Positions 1,948-31,660 of a DNA stretch of 39,667 bases are shown piece after piece. A program made the translations under genes and the position numbers. Every line of letters begins with the position of its first letter. Positions within the stretch are counted from its first letter, which is position 1. Source of the stretch: Candidatus Thalassarchaeaceae archaeon (GTDB taxonomy: Archaea; Thermoplasmatota; Poseidoniia; Poseidoniales; Thalassarchaeaceae); assembly GCA_963694325.1 (NCBI GenBank), contig CAVOCV010000002.1, positions 1 to 39,667 of the forward strand, given 5' to 3'. The notes below the pieces were generated by a model. The model ran no database searches. It had not been told where the DNA came from and worked only from the letters and a program-made list of their open reading frames with translations.

Positions 1948-4005
1948 ATGGTGAACGAGGAGGTTGCCGACGAGGATGCCGTGCTCGAGGATCTCTCGCC
2001 TGACGTCCCCGAGAAGTCCTCTTTCGGCATGGGCGCCGTCGCCGAGGGCGCGGACGACCCAATCATCGATACGCCGGTTGAAGAATGGCTCTCCGGCATC
2101 GCCTTCGAGTCGACGGCCGACGTGCCGATTCCCGACCGCTTGGTCGATCAGGTGATCGGCCAGGAAGACGCCGCAGTGGTCATCCGCAAGGCGGCTGAAC
2201 AACGGCGCCACGTGATGATGATCGGCGATCCCGGCACCGGTAAGAGCATGCTCGCCAAAGCCATGACCGAACTCATGCCCAGCGAATCCCTTGAGGACAC
2301 CCTGTGCTACCTCAATGACGACGATGAGAACGAACCCCGCATCCGCACCGTGCCAGCGGGCCGAGGTGACCGTCTGGTCAAGGACCTGCGCGGCCAGATG
2401 CGAGAACAGCGCGAGCGCACCAGCCGCACCCTGATGTTTGTCGCATTGCTGATCGGTGGTGTCCTGATTCTGGCCACCATCCAAACCGGTGAGATCATCA
2501 CGCTGCTCTTCGGCATGTTCCTGCTCGCCTTCGGTTACATGTTTATCAAAAACCGATTGGTCTCTGGAGAGGATGCCCGAATTCCGAAACTCCTCGTCAA
2601 GCACAAGCGTGGCGACGCACCCCCCTTCATCGACGCGACCGGCACATTGGCAGGCAGCCTGCTCGGCGACGTGCGCCACGACCCCTTCCAATCCGGCGGC
2701 ATGGAGACCCCGGCCCACGAGCGGGTCGAGGGTGGCGCCATCCACAAGGCGCACGGCGGTGTGCTTTTCATCGATGAAATCAATCTCCTTCGCCTCGAGG
2801 AACAACAGGCCCTCTTGACAGCGATGCAGGAGAAGGCCTTCGCGATCTCTGGCCGATCCGAGCGCAGCAGCGGCGCGCTGACCAAGACCGAAGCCGTGCC
2901 CTGTGACTTCATTCTCATCGCCGCGGGCAATCTCGACGCGGTCGGTCATATGCACCCGGCACTGCGCAGCCGCATCCGCGGCTATGGCTACGAGGTTTAC
3001 GTCAATTCCACGATGCGCGACACGGCGCGAAACCGTCGCCGCCTGATTCGATTCATCGCACAAGAGGTGCGCAATGAGGAGAACAAGAAGACCGGCACGC
3101 CGATTCCCCAGTTCGACCGTTCCGCGGTCGGCGTCATTCTGCGCGAGGCACAACGCCGCGCCGGTCGTCGTGGCAAGCTCACCCTGCGACTGCGTGAACT
3201 CGGTGGACTCGTCCGAATCGCCGGCGATCTCGCCTGTGAAGAAGACGCCACCATCACCTCGGCGCACCACGTCCTCGGTGCGCGTCGCATCGCGCGACCG
3301 CTGGAACAACAAGTTGCAGACCGCATGATCGAACATCGTCAGGATTACTCCCTGCTCGTCAACTCGGGTGAGCGCGTGGGTCGGGTCAATGGCCTGGCAG
3401 TTCTCGGAGCCGACAGTGGCATGTCCGACTTCAGTGGCATCATGCTGCCCGTCGAAGCGCTCGTCACCCCTGCACAGTCCAAGACCGGTCAAGTATTCGC
3501 AACCGGTGGCCTATCCGACCTCGCCAAGGAGAGCGTCACCAACGTCAGTGCAGTCATCAAGAAACTCACTGGCAAGGATGTCGGTGATTTCGACATCCAC
3601 ATCCAATTCGTCGACACCCACGGCGTTGATGGGGACAGCGCCAGCATCACCATCGCCACCGCCATCATCTCCGCCTTCGAAGACATCCCCATCGACCAGA
3701 ATCTGGCGATGACCGGTTCGCTCTCCGTGCGCGGCGAGGTCTTGCCCATCGGAGGGGTCACAGCCAAGATTGAGGCCGCGGCCAAGTCCGGCATCAATCG
3801 CGTCATCATCCCTCGCGCCAACATGAAGGACGTACTCATCGATGATGCCTACAAGGACATGATCGAGGTCATCCCGGTCGACACCCTCGACGAGGTCATG
3901 GAGAGCGCACTCGTCGCCAATGTCAACAAGTCCTCTCTGGTCGAGCGACTCGGTTCGGTGATCGACCGCCTGACACCGAACCCGAGCGGACAACCATCGG
4001 CCTGA
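1948..4005 (+). CDS. lonB: Archaeal membrane-bound Lon protease (LonB)
   Basis: It has Walker [15 protein letters not shown] and two TM helices inserted in the AAA+ domain ([34 protein letters not shown]). Walker B is VLFIDEI, the protease Ser lies in [16 protein letters not shown] and the Lys in [10 protein letters not shown]. The ATG at 1948 is preceded by a GGAG-like sequence; the track start at 1882 is a TTG. Confidence 0.93.
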
Positions 4006-9752: not shown

Positions 9753-10832
9753 TCACCATCCGGGCGTCCCACCCACCATCGATGTCCAATTGGTGACGCT
9801 GCTCGGACTGCCGCCTCCATCGTAGGTCAGGGATTGGTTCGAAGCGATCGTCCAGGAACTGTCCCATGTGATGATCATCACCTCTTCTGTGTAGGCGGTT
9901 CCTGCCTCTGTCCAACCGAGCGTGAGGGTATCTCCGCCAGACGACAGGGCATCGATGCCACCGACGCCGAGCACGCCCGAGGAGAGCAGGGTGATCGTCG
10001 GCACGCCAAATGGATTGTATTGGGTTTCACCATCGCCCGTACAGATGAGCAATCCGCCGCCGGCCAAGGCGCCGCCGCCGCCGAGAGGCGCGGAGGCTTC
10101 GGGAATTGCGAGGCTCCAACCGGAGAGGTTGACGGCAAATCCATCCGGGTTGTACAATTCGATCCACTCGGGAGGCCCGTTCAGCGGGTCGACCATGAAT
10201 TCGGAGATGTGGAGGGAAGAGGGCATCCGTCCCGCATCGTGGACCTCGAGTGTGACGCGCACCTGTTCGAGGTCCACATGCATCAAACGACTGGCGGTCG
10301 AGCCGCGGGTGGCCGAGGCGCGTGGGGTACCATCTGCGAACAATTCAAGTCCGATGCGACTGGCATTGGAACTGTCGACAACGGTGATGGTCAGGTTGAT
10401 GGCCAAACCTTCCTGAATGCCCAAGCCATGAATCAGCCGATCTTCGGTCACATTTGCGAGAGCGGCGATACGATTCACATCGAGATGGCCGCGACCGTCG
10501 CCGAGCCCGGGCAGATGATCCGCTTTGAGCAGGGTCGTGGCGTTCATCAGATGCCAATCTGAGGTAGAGTTCGCAATGTCTCTCACGCCGTTCACATGCG
10601 GGACGACATGACCGGGTGAATCGGTCAATCGCTCCAGCCCATCGATCGCCATCTGATCGTAACGGTCCGCATCGGGGACATTGCTGCCGAGTTTCAATTG
10701 ACTGAGGGCGAGGAAGGCGGAGACGATGACCAGAAAGAGCACGAATGCCGAGAGGAATTCCACGACGGCGGTCATGGCCTGTTCATCCGATTCTCTGCGC
10801 GCGCAGGATTCGACCTCTCGACCGCTCGCCAT
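9753..10832 (-). CDS. Pilin-like membrane-anchored protein with C-terminal lamin-tail domain (LTD)
   Basis: The N-terminus RRESDEQAMTAVVEFLSAFVLFLVIVSAFLAL resembles class III / TadE-like signal anchors. The LTD signature is ISEFMVDPLNGPPEWIELYNPDGFAVNLSGWSL. Several N-x-S/T sequons are present. Start is the ATG at the complement of 10830-10832. Confidence 0.72.
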   Translation of the reverse strand: MASGREVESCARRESDEQAMTAVVEFLSAFVLFLVIVSAFLALSQLKLGSNVPDADRYDQMAIDGLERLTDSPGHVVPHVNGVRDIANSTSDWHLMNATTLLKADHLPGLGDGRGHLDVNRIAALANVTEDRLIHGLGIQEGLAINLTITVVDSSNASRIGLELFADGTPRASATRGSTASRLMHVDLEQVRVTLEVHDAGRMPSSLHISEFMVDPLNGPPEWIELYNPDGFAVNLSGWSLAIPEASAPLGGGGALAGGGLLICTGDGETQYNPFGVPTITLLSSGVLGVGGIDALSSGGDTLTLGWTEAGTAYTEEVMIITWDSSWTIASNQSLTYDGGGSPSSVTNWTSMVGGTPGW

Positions 10833-10922
10833 CGCTCCGCCATGGTGCCGCCGACCATCAATCCTGTGGCCGAGTCCACCCCCTTTCGAACCCTTCTCGG
10901 GCCGCATCGGTTCGCCGAGGGG

Positions 10923-10928
10923 TATTTA
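10923..10928 (+). promoter_or_regulatory. TATA-like box (GGTATTTA) 31 nt upstream of ATG 10954
   Basis: This is an AT-rich hexamer in otherwise GC-rich DNA. The same motif and the same 31-nt spacing recur at 25879/25910. Confidence 0.45.
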
Positions 10929-10953
10929 CGGACTGTTTGAACTCGTGAAGGTG

Positions 10954-13900
10954 ATGGCTTCCTCTCAGCGCGCCCTACGGGCGCGTTCAGGTCAGCGGGC
11001 GAGCGCCCTCGTTCTCCTCCTCATTTTGAGTTCTTTGATGGCCTTCGTGACGCCGGTATCGGCCTCCCCCGCAACCGATGATCTGTCCATCGATGCAGGC
11101 ATCAAACCCATCGTGAATGCCCACTACGACTTCAACGAACTCGTCTTTCCCGAGGTGCTGATTTCGAATGAGTTGACCTCAAATTCGGACAGTCGCCAAA
11201 TCATGGCGGCGATCTGCCCCGGGGATCACACGGCGACGATGACCTGCCCCACCGGGAGTGGCACGACAGATTCGTTGAGCCAGGTCCCCAACCTCGGTCC
11301 CAAGGAATCGGTGACGATCACGTTCAACACCCTCTTCTTCTTCCCCAGTTCACCGGGCGTTCACACCGTCGTCTTCTGGTTCCCCGCCACGGATATTGAC
11401 GATACCGATGACCGGGTGGCTTACACCTTCGATTATGACCAGCCGCTCCGCGATTTGATTGTCAACGGACATGATGTCGATACCTCAGTGATTTACAACA
11501 GCGGCGTGCCGATTCCCGCCAATCTCGACTTGAGAGCCCGTTCATGGCTGGACGGCCTGAACTTCACGACGGGATGGACCATGCATCTGATCGAACCACT
11601 GGTGGCCGAAGCCGAGGATTGTGTGGATTGGCAGAAAAATTTCACCGGAGTCGGCGACGCGTTCGGCAATGAGATTATTCTACACGATGTCACCCACGAC
11701 GATGTATCGGAAACCATACACTACGCCCCCTACGACATGCGGATGAATTTGAGCAATGACTCGATGTGGATCCACGCCGATATCGATGTGCTCGGTAGCG
11801 AATACGGCCAGCCGCATTCCGTTGAGATTGTCGCCATCAACAACGGGACGGAATTATTCACCACTTGGTTCAATTTCACTGGTGATGGTACGCCCCGGAA
11901 TCAGCGCGTTTCCCAGTCCATCGCAGGCATCGACAATGGCACCACCTGTTTCTCTGCCCGGATGACTGTGCCAGACATTCAGGTTGCGAGCGATTCCATG
12001 GATGTCGGTGGAATCAGTGGTTCATTCAACTCCCAACCTCTCGCCTTGCCCAATATCACAGCCCCTTACGCGGGTGAATTTGAGGTTCGAGCAAGCATCT
12101 CTAACACCTTCATCGACCCGAACCCTCACAATGATCAAGTCTCCTTTGACATCATCGTCGATGACACGGTCAACGCTTGGATTCGCGAAGTCGTCCCGGC
12201 CCGTGGCACGACCACCTACGTCGATGTGAATGGCAATACCGTGGTGCGGTTCCCCTACGGTGATGATTCGATACGAATCGTCTCGGGCAACATCGGGTGG
12301 AAACCGGTCCAAGCACTGGTGGAAGTGAACATACTCGAATTCCATTCTCGAGATCTCGCCGCGGGACCCTACACGTGCAACATCTCGCTGCTGCCGGGTG
12401 AGGAGATTCGGTGTGATTTCGACTTCGCCAGCACCGGCCTGTACATTCTCAATGCATCGATCGTGATGACGGACGGTGGCATCGATGTGGACACGAGCGA
12501 CAACTGGTATGAGGTCGGTATCACGGTCGACTTCGGCCTGATCAATCCAGTCATCGCCAATCCGGGACCCAACGCCATCTATGAGACCGGCGACACGATT
12601 CTCGCTGTGGCGGGAGTGAACCCCCTCGCGCCGATGCCCTTGAATTTCACTTGGAAATTGAACTATGTCGAGGTGCTCGGTTATGGGCAGACTGCGAACA
12701 TCACCATGCCGATGGGCGAATGGCTGCTGACCGTCTATGTGACCGATGAGGCGGACAACCTCGAGATTGCCGCCCAATCGGTTCGCATCCTCAATCGTGT
12801 CGAGTTCGCAGCCGCACCCCACATCATGAGCGGTGTCGCCGTCTCGACCGCGCCGATGGAATTGACCTTCGACACGCCCGAGCTTCCACCGACGGGCATC
12901 CTCTATCCGACGGCATTCAACAAAGGCAAGGACCCACTCGTGATGTTCAACGCGTCGATGCGATCCACTCTTGGCGTCCCGATCGAGGTCGACGTCTTCG
13001 AAGCCTGGCTCGATCTCGCGGCTTTCCTTCCGCCCGCGATCAATGCCTCGACAGTCGAAATTCTCCGCATGCCGACCTGGGGCGGTTTGATTCTGGAAGA
13101 GTTTGATTTGGATGGGTATTCTGAAATCTACGAGAATGGGACCCTATACTTCCGCGTCGAAGGTGATGCAGGTGGCGCTTTCATGCTGATCGGGGCACTG
13201 GACCCGGTCGTTGTCAACCCTGGGTCGCTGGATATCGTTCTGCAGAAGGACGGCCAGGTCAAGGTGGTGTGGGACAACGAGGGAGACACCGAAAATCCCT
13301 ACTTCGGTGGATGGCGCCTGTATCGCAAGACGACGCTGACGTTCTCCTATCCCTTCAACTCGCAATCACAGTTCAATTCCGCCACCCTCGGCTATCACGT
13401 GCTGGACCTGGCGCCCGGAACTGAAGAATGGCAGGATCCGAATTTCTACGAGGACGGCACCTGTCTATCCTTCCTCGTCATGTCCCATTCGCGCGGCGGC
13501 GTGGCCGACTGGCATTACGGAAACGTCACCCGTGGCACTTGGAATGAAATCACTCAACGGATGGACGTCCCTGAGATCTGCGTCGATGATCTCTCCCCAT
13601 CGACCGAGGTCATTGGCATGCGTGGCAAGGTGATCTTCGACAACGCCACAAAGAAACACAGCACCAACATCTCTTGGACCTGGCCACCCGTCGGTGATGA
13701 AGGACCCTTGACATGGTCTCTTTACCGGGCCCAATCGACGGTATCAACGGTCGAATTCATGGAACCGCTCGTCTCTGGCTTGGTGGCGGTCCCCGGTGAG
13801 AAGGCTTGGTACGGTGAGACCGAGAGCGCATTGCGAGAATCGGTTCACCTCGAGCAATTCTACTATTACGTCTTGATTCCGTTCGACGCCGTCGAAAATA

Positions 13901-14328: not shown

Positions 14329-14414
14329 GCGACGATCGCATAGCCTGGCCATTGCGCTGGATTGCTAATCCAGTGGGTTCACCCACGGGAGTTCAAATCT
14401 CCCTCGTCGCGCCA
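14329..14414 (+). tRNA. tRNA-Ser (anticodon GCT), class II, CCA encoded
   Basis: The acceptor stem is GCGACGA/TCGTCGC. The anticodon arm is CTGGA-TTGCTAA-TCCAG. The long variable arm is TGGG-TTCA-CCCA, and the T arm is GGGAG-TTCAAAT-CTCCC, followed by discriminator G and CCA. Confidence 0.93.
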
Positions 14415-14635
14415 AAAATCACCAAAAGTCAGCGACAGGGAGTTTGAACTGCGGTCACGCCGAACACCAAAAAGCATCACAGCCGCGTGGCCGCGAAGTT
14501 CAAATCTCGGCGCTCGCCCAAAATAAGCACCAATAAGCGGTGCGAGCGGCTAACCGACTGTGTTCGCTTGGTACGTTCGCGCTTCCTTCGGGCTTCGCCC
14601 TCAGTCCAGCGCTCAGATATCCCTCGTCGCGCCCA
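14415..14635 (+). repeat. Three successive units (14415-14462, 14463-14520, 14521-14635), each ending in a decayed copy of the tRNA-Ser 3' end
   Basis: Unit ends are GGGAGTTTGAACTGCGGTCACGCCG, GAAGTTCAAATCTCGGCGCTCGCCCA and TCCCTCGTCGCGCC(CA). The genuine tRNA end is GGGAGTTCAAATCTCCCTCGTCGCGCCA. Each unit begins with a variant of the tRNA 3' flank AAAATCACCAAAAG. Confidence 0.75.
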
Positions 14636-14665
14636 CCGCGCCGCCACCGCGGCACAACCACAATC

Positions 14666-29861: not shown

Positions 29862-30638
29862 ATGACCGAACTCAAGGTGAGTGACCTGTTCACCCTCTCC
29901 TTCGTTCTCGGACTGATGATCGGCACGATGGCCTTCTTCATGCACATCTTCGCCAATGGCATGGCGGTGGATGATCTCGGCACCTCGCTTCGCATTGGGG
30001 GGATGTTTGGTGGATCCGCCACGATCATCACCCTGACCTACATTTCTGTGCGCTATGTCGAGCGCAATCGAAGGCTTTCGGAAGCCGAAGCCACCGTGGA
30101 TGTGGTCGACCGACTGCAGATGGCCCTCATCTCGATCGAAGACGAGGCCCAATCCCTGCCGTGGGCGGAGGAGAGCCCGTGGACCACAGCCTCTCACATC
30201 CGACGGGACCGCGGTGTCCTGTCCTTGGATTTGCACGACCTCGATGTGCCGCAAGCCCGCAAAGCGGTCGAGGTCGTCATCGCTGGGCGGTCATGGCTTG
30301 GCCGCATCCGTATCGTCACCGGTCGCGGCCTGCATTCCAAAACAATCCCCAAACTGCGGCCGATGGTCATCAAACGCCTGCGCGAGGTCGATCACGAATT
30401 GAATTGGGAACTTCTTCTGAAGAAGGGCAGCCTCACCTTGCGACCCATCGGCAAGGCGCCGACCTTGGCCCGTTGGATGCTGCGTTTCGTCTTCCTCGGC
30501 GGGCCGATCACCATCGCCTTCGCCTTCGCATTCCGCGACCTCGCCGGCGAGGGTGCCCACGAACAGGGCCAAAACGTCGGCATCGCCCTCGGCATCCTCC
30601 TCTCCGGCATGCTCGCCTCCTACCGCGAACGACAGTGA
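29862..30638 (+). CDS. Membrane-anchored Smr (small MutS-related) domain protein
   Basis: It starts MTELKVSDLF and has two N-terminal TM helices. The Smr motifs are LDLHDLDVPQARKAV and IVTGRGLHS. Two C-terminal TM helices follow. The track ORF start at 29496 is antisense to the DUF2085 gene. Confidence 0.72.
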   Translation: MTELKVSDLFTLSFVLGLMIGTMAFFMHIFANGMAVDDLGTSLRIGGMFGGSATIITLTYISVRYVERNRRLSEAEATVDVVDRLQMALISIEDEAQSLPWAEESPWTTASHIRRDRGVLSLDLHDLDVPQARKAVEVVIAGRSWLGRIRIVTGRGLHSKTIPKLRPMVIKRLREVDHELNWELLLKKGSLTLRPIGKAPTLARWMLRFVFLGGPITIAFAFAFRDLAGEGAHEQGQNVGIALGILLSGMLASYRERQ

Positions 30639-30705
30639 ACACCCGGTGCACAGTGTACAGTGCACAGGTAACAGCAACATCGAATCACCAGAAAGCGATA
30701 CGAGA

Positions 30706-30931
30706 TGTTCGCGCCGGGACCTGAGCGCTGGACTGAGCGAAGCGAAGGAAGCGCGAAATCAAGAAGCAATAGCAGTCGGTGGGGCGCGAACACCGACTCT
30801 TATCGATACATATCGAGGTGCTCGCGCCGGGACCTGAGCGCTGGACTGAGCGAAGCGAAGGAAGCGCGAAATCAAGAAGCAATAGCAGTCGGTGAGGCGC
30901 GAACACCGACTCTTATCGATACATATCGAGG
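30706..30931 (-). repeat. Two tandem 113-bp direct repeats (30706-30818, 30819-30931) immediately 3' of tRNA-Glu, each carrying a copy of the tRNA's terminal 14 nt
   Basis: The period is exactly 113 bp. The two units differ at 2 positions (30708/30821 and 30782/30895). The 14-mer TGCTCGCGCCGGGA (+ strand) occurs at 30932, 30819 and, with 1 mismatch, 30706. A degraded partial third unit extends to about 30655. Confidence 0.9.
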
Positions 30932-31006
30932 TGCTCGCGCCGGGATTCGAACCCGGGTCAGCGGGATGAAAACCCACCATGATGGGCCTGACTACACCAC
31001 GCGAGC
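30932..31006 (-). tRNA. tRNA-Glu (anticodon TTC), CCA not encoded
   Basis: The reverse complement is GCTCGCG-TGGTGTAGTCAGGCCCATCATG-GTGGG-TTTTCAT-CCCGC-TGAC-CCGGG-TTCGAAT-CCCGG-CGCGAGC-A. The D-arm sequence is typical of archaeal tRNA-Glu. Confidence 0.9.
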
Positions 31007-31048
31007 GACAAGCCCCCCGCGGCGAATCGGGTTCATGAGGCGTTCGGT

Positions 31049-31660
31049 TCACTCTTCCTCATCGAGGAGGCCGTCCCACCAGCGCTTCGAGGGGATGAGA
31101 AGGGCGACACCGAGGATGCTGACGAGCACCCAGGCCTTCCAATCGCTGAGGGTATCCATGAGTTCAGCACCCCAGAATCCGATGGCGACCGCCTCGATAC
31201 CGAAGCGCAAGCCGCGGCCGAGAAGTCCGGCCTGAATGAAGCGGCGACGATCCATCTCACCCATGCCTGCAACCCAGGCGAATACCTTGTACGGAATGGG
31301 ACTCAATGCGGCGATGAAGACGCCCATCTCACCATATCTGCGGGTCAGATTCTGCAGTCGCTTGACATGGTGTGAGGCAAATAATCGCTCGGCGACGCTG
31401 AGCCCGAGACGTTGACCGAGCCAATGGCCGACGACCGCACCGGCCACACTGGTGATGGTTGCGACGAACCAGATGGCGAGAATCATGCCCCACGAGCCAT
31501 TTGCGGCGATCAGCATCGGCAGGATGAGTGCCTCGGGCGGAATGGGATGGATGATGGCCTCGGTGAACGAGAGGATGCCGAGGCCGATGAGTCCGAGGCT
31601 GTCCGCCCAATCGACGAAGGCATTCATTGCCGACCAGAAGAAGTCGGGTAAGAGGCCCAT
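31049..31660 (-). CDS. DedA/YqaA-family (SNARE-associated) membrane protein
   Basis: The motif SFTEAIIHPIPPEALILPML and several TM helices are typical of COG1238 YqaA. Confidence 0.75.
   Translation of the reverse strand: MGLLPDFFWSAMNAFVDWADSLGLIGLGILSFTEAIIHPIPPEALILPMLIAANGSWGMILAIWFVATITSVAGAVVGHWLGQRLGLSVAERLFASHHVKRLQNLTRRYGEMGVFIAALSPIPYKVFAWVAGMGEMDRRRFIQAGLLGRGLRFGIEAVAIGFWGAELMDTLSDWKAWVLVSILGVALLIPSKRWWDGLLDEEE

Follow-up and report, generated by a model that had tools for sequence, protein, structure and literature searches.

A copy-number-polymorphic array behind tRNA-Glu in an ocean archaeon, probably built by tandem duplication of the tRNA tail and its trailer

Direct repeats of tRNA 3′-ends are usually read as scars left by integrating viruses or plasmids. 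The closest described parallel to the locus reported here is the tyrT locus of Escherichia coli, whose older literature includes papers by Egan and Landy in 1978, Rossi et al. in 1981 and Boesl and Kersten in 1991, and whose repeats have never been settled in origin or purpose. In strain K-12 MG1655, tyrV of the tyrTV operon is followed by 3.1 copies of a 178-bp unit; the terminal 19 nucleotides (nt) of tRNA-Tyr occur six times, and GGGGAAGGAT, the complement of part of this 19-nt core, is found in every full unit. The 3′-end of the annotated small RNA rttR (rtT RNA) falls exactly at the CCA in the first of the repeated cores; a small open reading frame (ORF), tpr, lies within the repeat region. 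One repeat unit of the tyrT operon encodes rttR (PMC3318445), whose RNA is thought to be involved in the processing of the tyrT transcript and in the stringent response (bioRxiv 10.1101/2024.07.17.603846). Here we describe an archaeal counterpart of these repeats, two 113-bp units following a tRNA-Glu(UUC) gene, in a 39,667-nt stretch (contig CAVOCV010000002.1, hereafter the window) of a Candidatus Thalassarchaeaceae archaeon. The array is probably a tandem duplication, non-coding and polymorphic in copy number, of a tRNA-tail module made up of the last 16 nt of tRNA-Glu and 97 nt of its own trailer.

The tRNA-Glu(UUC) gene lies on the minus strand (30930/30932-31006; ARAGORN and Rfam RF00005, 56.2 bits), is of archaeal type as judged by reading its sequence, does not encode CCA, and ends in tRNA sense with ...TTCGAA-TCCCGG-CGCGAGC-A-CC. 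An earlier note on this DNA had placed the units 3′ of the gene, which is true in tRNA sense and is reworded here: the minus-strand position of the gene puts the units at lower window coordinates. Tandem Repeats Finder (TRF) returned a single array at 30701-30945 with a period of 113, 2.2 copies, 97% matches and a score of 469, and direct comparison of 30706-30818 with 30819-30931 gave exactly two differing positions, 30708 and 30782, both in agreement with the coordinates, the 113-bp period and the two differences given in the note. A pattern search likewise bore out the three occurrences it had listed of a 14-mer, TCCCGGCGCGAGCA in tRNA sense, and its cloverleaf position, which comprises the last T-loop nucleotide, the 3′ strands of the T-stem and the acceptor stem, and the discriminator. 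The identity extends beyond this 14-mer to a 16-nt core, TCCCGGCGCGAGCACC, which includes 2 nt past the discriminator.

Read in tRNA sense, the order is tRNA-Glu, a 97-nt body, an exact TCCCGGCGCGAGCACC, the body again with one change, TCCCGGCGCGAACATC, and a unique flank. The first core (c1, 30930-30945) is the terminal 16 nt of the tRNA-Glu region. Unit 1, the tRNA-proximal 113 nt (30817-30929; TRF, repeat search and allele table), is composed of a body with a T marker in a hairpin loop (30833-30929) and a closing core identical to c1 (c2, 30817-30832). Unit 2, the distal 113 nt (30704-30816; TRF, repeat and pattern searches), is composed of a body with a C marker (30720-30816) and a degenerate closing core (c3, TCCCGGCGCGAACATC, 30704-30719), in which the pattern search found two mismatches to the 16-nt core, one of them within the 14-mer. 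Beyond c3, the unique flank F (30639-30703) reaches to the stop codon of a convergent Smr-domain gene; all of these features are given for the minus strand. A 53-nt stretch of the unit was present twice, against a chance expectation of 0.00.

The array varies in copy number within the species. Same-species contigs, retrieved through exact lookup of the VTT, Smr and FtsX proteins and derived from differing samples and assemblers, had flanks 99.5-100% identical to the window. One unit was the majority allele (L001/L024, L004, L007, L023, L025 and L027, together with similar places not listed individually), two units were found in L003, L026 and L130 besides the window, and at least two in L028 and L131, whose contigs both end within the array; the contigs of L005 and L006 also terminate inside it. 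L002 holds one unit plus 29 nt of a second; the 84 bp deleted from it extend from within Psi (the inverted tRNA 3′-end copy that each unit body carries) to 3 nt beyond c3, and these limits are the two ends of the Psi:c3 helix. The one-unit allele is bounded by c1 and the degenerate c3, and C was found at the T/C marker in all one-unit alleles; alleles with two or more units read T,C (window), C,T (L130), C,C (L003 and L026) or T,T (L028). tRNA-Glu was undamaged in every allele. The copy-number polymorphism that the earlier note had suggested looking for is therefore present, with copy numbers of 1, 2, at least 2, and 1 plus a partial unit among contigs more than 99.5% identical, and the orthologous loci do not show a single invariant copy. 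Its description of the duplication as recent or homogenised is also right, the units being near-identical with two differences.

Comparison with a sister lineage, L033, shows a native origin for the proximal part of the unit. Nucleotides 1-34 of the unit are the native tRNA-Glu trailer, which is present in single copy in L033 (score 51, matched by 0/2000 shuffles), right after a near-identical tRNA and with two changes, one substitution and one 1-nt deletion, over the 34 nt. Flank F is orthologous to the distal trailer of L033 (alignment, 23/2000 shuffles as good), and its first ~30 nt weakly resemble the unit start. The earlier note had called this segment a degraded half-unit, a claim that is borderline: the resemblance was significant in an alignment anchored right after the core (43/5000 shuffles as good) and was not significant in an unanchored local alignment of unit and flank (1305/2000). 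Flank F also contains GTGCACA three times at 30646-30667, inside CCTGTGCACTGTACACTGTGCACC and shortly past the Smr stop codon; a similar palindrome, CTGTACACAG, occurs near tRNA-Ser in the related locus L129.

Each unit body carries an inverted complement of the tRNA 3′-end, termed Psi (GGTGTTCGCGCC, 30896-30907, second copy 30783-30794, minus strand). Psi is placed 22 nt after c1, is the complement of the last 12 nt of tRNA-Glu, and pairs in folds over 12 bp with either flanking core; its match to the reverse-complemented tRNA was equalled by 28/2000 and 92/3000 shuffles. Longer inverted copies were found in L033 (26 nt, into the T-arm, 0/3000) and L010 (39 nt, into the anticodon stem, 0/3000), and one of 12-14 nt in L016. 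Psi tracks the differences between tRNAs, pairing as GGCGC:GCGCC in the window and L033 and as GATGC or GATAC:GCATC in L010 and L016, and the L033 Psi is short by one C. Predicted helices were strong in all six loci tested, with z between -2.1 and -9.1. Psi is part of the native trailer, and this inverted copy predates the array. A further palindrome, TCGATATGTATCGA, follows c1 and is not concentric with c1/Psi.

An 8-bp GC-rich hairpin (AGTCGGTG / CACCGACT, 30887-30911, copy 30774-30798, minus strand) has a 9-nt loop that holds the T/C polymorphism, and a pyrimidine- and T-rich tract, GCTATTGCTTCTTGATTT, comes after it. The pair looks terminator-like, and the unit body runs on for another 40 nt past the hairpin and the T-rich stretch to its end, CTCAGTCCAGCGCTCAG(G). 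The 17-mer CTCAGTCCAGCGCTCAG at this distal end (30834-30850, copy 30721-30737, minus strand) is identical to one behind tRNA-Ser, with three matches found against 0.15 expected. No noteworthy ORF was found in the unit body, where the only ORFs overlap real genes or are frame-shifted between units, the period of 113 not being a multiple of 3, and Rfam held no family for the unit. A 176-amino-acid (aa) ORF (window 30705-31235, plus strand; 2344-2874 in L026) was called by the gene finder in two-unit alleles only; it lies antisense to the units, tRNA-Glu and the gene for VTT, and is almost certainly no real gene. Several other identities for the unit were tried and rejected: a decayed tRNA in the distal unit body (alignment to the 5′ 61 nt of the tRNA was equalled by 1850/2000 shuffles, and no extra tRNA match was found in the unit at E up to 10), a C/D-box sRNA or permuted tRNA (no Rfam match, and no box motifs or T-stem 5′ strand by eye), and a tpr-like small protein (no conserved ORF in the unit).

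These features can be joined into a duplication mechanism. In the one-unit allele, c1 and c3 are direct repeats 113 nt apart, identical over their first 11 nt and in 14 of 16 nt overall. A change between one and two units would occur through misaligned exchange, either replication slippage or unequal recombination between sisters or homologues; the first exchange would use the 11-16-nt repeats c1 and c3, and later ones the full 113-nt homology. An exchange between c1 and c3 would yield a middle core equal to c1, as is observed, and once two units are present their near-identical 113 nt would permit further unequal exchange and conversion. All four T/C combinations fit such exchange or conversion between units. 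With every exchange point placed within one of the identical cores or between two of them, tRNA-Glu would be rebuilt intact in each allele. Since c3 is complementary to Psi, the L002 deletion joins the two feet of a hairpin, which suggests slippage across the stem with its usual outcome. For the older direct-inverted-direct order of copies, a duplication of the template-switch or tandem-inversion type would be a better account than a foreign insertion. As to its likely role, the unit, with its GC hairpin and T-rich tract between two convergent genes, would be the trailer and terminator region of the tRNA; extra units would be neutral or serve as redundant terminators, and any transcripts that read through might, as with E. 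coli rtT RNA, be cut back at the tRNA-like end that recurs in each unit. Of the two mechanisms that the earlier note had offered, unequal-crossover expansion is thus supported by the polymorphism, the marker combinations and the L033 trailer; for the step from one to two units, its other mechanism, serial site-specific insertion, lacks support, the window holding no integrase or transposase, the viral, metagenome, phage and plasmid searches yielding no element with the junction or the unit, and the unit having no coding capacity.

The trailers of related lineages show the same design in simpler form. In L019 and 10 other lineages examined, tRNA-Glu is directly followed by CTTTTCGACC or CTTTTCTACC and, in nearly all of them, then by a small zinc-ribbon ORF. 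This ORF, M[VP]DYCE.IVCHCG...CPRCGHV[VI]EACCEGAP.W, lies 3′ of tRNA-Glu in most related lineages (L016/L017 at ~3790-3950, L019/L020 at ~3745-3890, and many of L036-L081) and is absent from the window, L033 and L010. L016 has the order tRNA-Glu, 21-nt spacer, Psi, 18 nt, a partial direct copy GGCGCGCACC, CTTTTCGACC and the zinc-ribbon ORF, so that direct-inverted-direct copies of the tRNA end, as read from the sequence, are interposed between the gene and its ancestral trailer. Its distal copy has GGCGCG, while its tRNA and Psi have GATAC / GCATC. The proximal spacer of L016 was considered as a copy of its ancestral trailer and rejected (2628/5000, not significant). In L049, ~75 nt have been inserted after tRNA-Glu and ahead of the ancestral trailer (GAGCAC...GAGCAC CTTTTCAACC), with a 6-nt direct repeat at the borders. 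A profile of the unit (nhmmer) found it in no other lineage or genus, save the first 30 nt shared with L033; the window array is a species-specific elaboration of the direct-inverted-direct design.

A second array of this kind stands behind the tRNA-Ser(GCU) gene (14329-14414, plus strand; ARAGORN, Rfam), and the two-unit locus as a whole spans 14329-14636 (plus strand; repeat-family, alignment and nhmmer searches). Core-like copies lie at 14390-14416, 14497-14523 and 14610-14636, spaced 107 and 113 nt apart. A 17-nt spacer follows tRNA-Ser, then an inverted pseudo-tRNA-Ser at ~14432-14492 (1/3000), and then a diverged direct copy of the tRNA-Ser segment from T-loop to 3′-end with a similar spacer (0/3000; 32/5000). 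The second Ser unit (14523-14636) is homologous to the Glu unit (nhmmer E 1.3e-25): the shared segment of ~80 nt, from Psi through the 17-mer (score 87, 0/2000), has 74% identity over 53 ungapped nt with the 17-mer identical, and is not derived from either tRNA. This unit ends in TCCCTCGTCGCGCC (14620-14633), an exact 14-nt copy of the tRNA-Ser end at 14400-14413. The tRNA-Ser locus was identical in all seven same-species contigs that span it, and the tRNA-Ser array is older than the tRNA-Glu array.

Among relatives, one genus has a plain oligo-T trailer behind tRNA-Ser. L129 (ENA ERZ930063 k127_86932) has its tRNA-Ser between gyrA and a 1097-aa gene, with a conserved 20-nt trailer (15/20 identical to that of the window) and a conserved 18-nt inverted copy of the tRNA end; relative to its flanking genes, this block lies on the opposite strand as compared with the window. 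A distal direct copy of the tRNA-Ser end was sought in L129 and rejected (1755/3000, not significant). Inverted copies of the tRNA end were found behind tRNA-Glu and tRNA-Ser in several related lineages, and both tRNA genes in the ~47 kb inspected for this genome, that is, the window plus stretches beyond both its ends, carry this kind of array. A dispersed element resembling a miniature inverted-repeat transposable element or a repetitive extragenic palindromic sequence, with many copies, terminal inverted repeats and short target duplications, finds no support in the ~47 kb searched, where the unit occurs at only two loci, both of them tRNA trailers.

The surroundings of the Glu array are housekeeping genes, as judged by Pfam scans, in a window of ~59% G+C. 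The convergent neighbour (29862-30638, plus strand; Pfam and gene calls) encodes a 258-aa membrane protein with a weak Smr domain, and the gene upstream of tRNA-Glu (31049-31660, minus strand; Pfam and gene calls) a VTT/DedA-family membrane protein. Other window genes encode thymidylate kinase, DUF2085, PIN_6, ThiS, TatA, a MacB/FtsX transporter, archaeal LonB, KaiC-like ATPases and gyrB-gyrA. ARAGORN and Rfam identified two tRNA genes in the window, tRNA-Ser(GCU) at 14329-14414 (+) and tRNA-Glu(UUC) at 30930-31006 (-), and a further ~6 kb on its left side and 1.7 kb on its right contained no third tRNA gene. The order VTT then tRNA-Glu is kept in 69 of 80 related metagenome loci, and those relatives that were looked at in detail also have the convergent Smr gene. 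Homologues of the VTT and GyrA proteins bear the source names Thermoplasmatota, Euryarchaeota, Candidatus Thalassarchaeaceae or Poseidoniaceae, which makes the organism an uncultured marine archaeon of the Poseidoniales (Marine Group II). The nearest other lineages have only ~70% identity in window proteins of the VTT and GyrA type; a scan of GTDB with the VTT protein, at one genome per species, returned no close relative, only two Dehalococcoidia loci at 48% identity.

Several points weigh against the duplication account. First, the ~80 nt shared between the Ser and Glu arrays go beyond local duplication, and some transfer between the loci is needed; possible routes are a small mobile cassette or an ectopic copy that arose when the template was switched at the TCCC common to both. 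Second, the spacers between tRNA and Psi are not palindromic, unlike a pristine snap-back junction. Third, no zero-unit allele was found among the same-species contigs. Fourth, the alleles were read from short-read metagenome assemblies, in which copies above two cannot be counted and haplotypes might in principle be chimeras of strains. Finally, the exchange steps are inferred from the structures of the alleles, and a role of the unit in termination or processing is likewise drawn from sequence; a scan for sigma-70 promoters and intrinsic terminators, which suits archaea poorly and accepts terminator loops of 8 nt or less, found none.

One alternative, a selected functional RNA module, is tentative and on balance unlikely, and it can coexist with the duplication mechanism. 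It would have the array read through from tRNA-Glu and processed at the tRNA-like ends to release a ~113-nt RNA closed by the Psi:core helix, or would have the hairpin and T-rich tract act as a terminator shared by the convergent genes. The E. coli locus offers a model: the first repeated core supplies, in its CCA, the annotated 3′-end of rttR, and every full unit holds a complement of the core. The helix between the tRNA 3′-end and Psi co-varies between lineages, although close inverted repeats can change in concert without selection. Psi-bearing lineages lack the oligo-T that follows tRNA-Glu in most relatives, and the fold of tRNA plus array was better than that of shuffles (z = -3.3); the fold of a single unit, however, was not (z = -1.4), and the discriminator and the CC after it are paired in the helix as well, which is not so in a tRNA minihelix substrate. 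A strongly selected product is also difficult to reconcile with a unit that varies freely in number and is absent from all other genera.

The homology between the Ser and Glu units raises a further reading, which we regard as improbable, that a 113-nt "tRNA-tail cassette" spreads between tRNA genes in this Thalassarchaeaceae lineage and is rebuilt with the cognate 3′-end at each. Such spread would depend on a trans-acting recombinase or on template switching, with the TCCC that the T-arms share as the priming site. If true, it would represent an undescribed kind of archaeal miniature repeat element associated with tRNA ends.

Serial site-specific integration, in which the unit would be a miniature attachment (att) cassette, the remnant or non-autonomous derivative of a tRNA-integrating element, added copy by copy by an integrase acting in trans, each insertion regenerating the tRNA end, is quite doubtful as the origin of the units, and doubtful to a greater degree as the cause of the recent doubling. 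The core span is typical of the T-loop class of tRNA attachment sites, a class reportedly set out by Williams in 2002. The homologous unit behind tRNA-Ser ends in the 3′-end of tRNA-Ser itself, and in L016 and L049 short insertions part tRNA-Glu from the ancestral trailer and carry a partial distal copy of the tRNA end; the GGCGCG of the L016 distal core, set beside the GATAC/GCATC of its tRNA and Psi, is what the own core of an incoming element would leave. tRNA-Glu does serve as an integration site in this family: in L114 (= L097; JGI Ga0209554_1000943), a distant relative with a VTT protein 53% identical, tRNA-Glu is immediately followed by an ORF of 177 aa and a Phage_integrase gene of 324 aa (10814-12314), and these genes are probably an integrated element, the contig stopping before its far end. 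Poseidoniales elements with integrases have been reported beside tRNA genes (bioRxiv 10.1101/2025.08.03.668216).

Against integration, Pfam scans of the major ORFs found no integrase or transposase in the 39.7-kb window, nor was any found in ~6 kb past its left end. Integration would leave the native trailer after the distal core, whereas unit nt 1-34, compared with L033, place it after the proximal one; trailer sequence is also found after the distal repeat, the partial core of L016 abutting CTTTTCGACC and flank F being shared with L033. The inverted core is not predicted by integration, and none was found at the integrase-bearing L114 in the first 90 nt past tRNA-Glu. A circle of 113 bp is mechanically implausible. 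No exact match to the unit or its junction was found in viral contigs (four patterns) or metagenome contigs (one pattern), and blastn against phages and plasmids gave no meaningful match to the unit; the search for a parent element comprised exact-match scans and the collections available, which limits what its negative says about a phage attachment site (attP). Two viral 17-mer matches, inside unrelated sequence, were set aside as chance.

An assembly artefact, in which one unit was multiplied in error or the units of two strains were strung together, is very unlikely and copy-number polymorphism real, even though the data are short-read metagenomes throughout and contigs often break here: three other samples (L003, L026 and L130) each yielded a complete two-unit allele in an independent assembly, and two more (L028 and L131) contigs with at least two units, with differing pipelines and marker phases, assemblers collapse tandem repeats rather than expand them, and the internal junction (body end, GAGCACC core, body start) is absent from one-unit genomes, so that mis-threaded one-unit reads cannot create it. 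Contigs break in the Glu array in L005, L006, L028 and L131 and in the T-loop of tRNA-Ser in L122. These breaks show that the repeats disrupt short-read assembly, and they hint that the copy number in those samples may be higher or mixed.

Tandem duplication of the tRNA-tail module thus remains the reading we prefer for the Glu array. What is new at this locus is the conservation, across genera, of pseudo-copies of the tRNA end in inverted orientation, and the occurrence of a homologous unit at two different tRNA trailers. A signature usually ascribed to integrating elements here arises, and still changes, in wild populations without element genes, which calls for caution wherever software uses tRNA-end repeats to call prophages and islands. 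Provided that they are transcribed, the units would also be candidates for giving rise to small RNAs linked to tRNAs, in an archaeal group that is among the most abundant in the ocean.

Compared with known systems, the array shares with tRNA att repeats, as in the accretion of cis-mobilizable elements and integrative and conjugative elements, direct repeats of the tRNA 3′-end that bracket extra DNA, a regenerated tRNA, and internal att-like cores usable as further targets. It differs in having no recombinase, element genes or identified parent element, and in that the bracketed DNA is only 97 nt, starts with the own trailer of the locus and contains an inverted core. With tandem inversion duplications and quasipalindrome template-switch rearrangements, known from the genetics of Salmonella and E. 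coli, it has in common the direct-inverted-direct copies of one short segment beside stem-loop-forming DNA, and later deletions that end at hairpin bases, as in the L002 allele. Those cases, however, are lab-selected, kilobase-scale and unstable, whereas the archaeal copies are 12-75 nt long, old and shared across genera, with junction spacers that are not palindromic.

The tyrTV repeats come closest in architecture. In both, near-identical tandem units, ~2-3 in number, follow directly 3′ of a tRNA gene and in its orientation, each rebuilds the terminal segment of the tRNA from the end of the T-loop onwards, over 19 nt in E. coli and 16 nt in the archaeon, and includes an inverted complement of the core, and a unique flank comes after the last core. 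The two belong to different domains of life and different tRNAs, with units of 178 and 113 bp that have no sequence similarity (964/2000 shuffles as good); E. coli has two full tandem tRNA genes where the archaeal locus has one, and the archaeal unit is without a tpr-like ORF. rtT is known as a stable RNA, whereas the archaeal units are known from sequence and folds. In the archaeon, moreover, a second tRNA, tRNA-Ser, has a homologous unit. By its sequence, the archaeal unit is therefore an architectural analogue of the tyrTV repeat and not its homologue.

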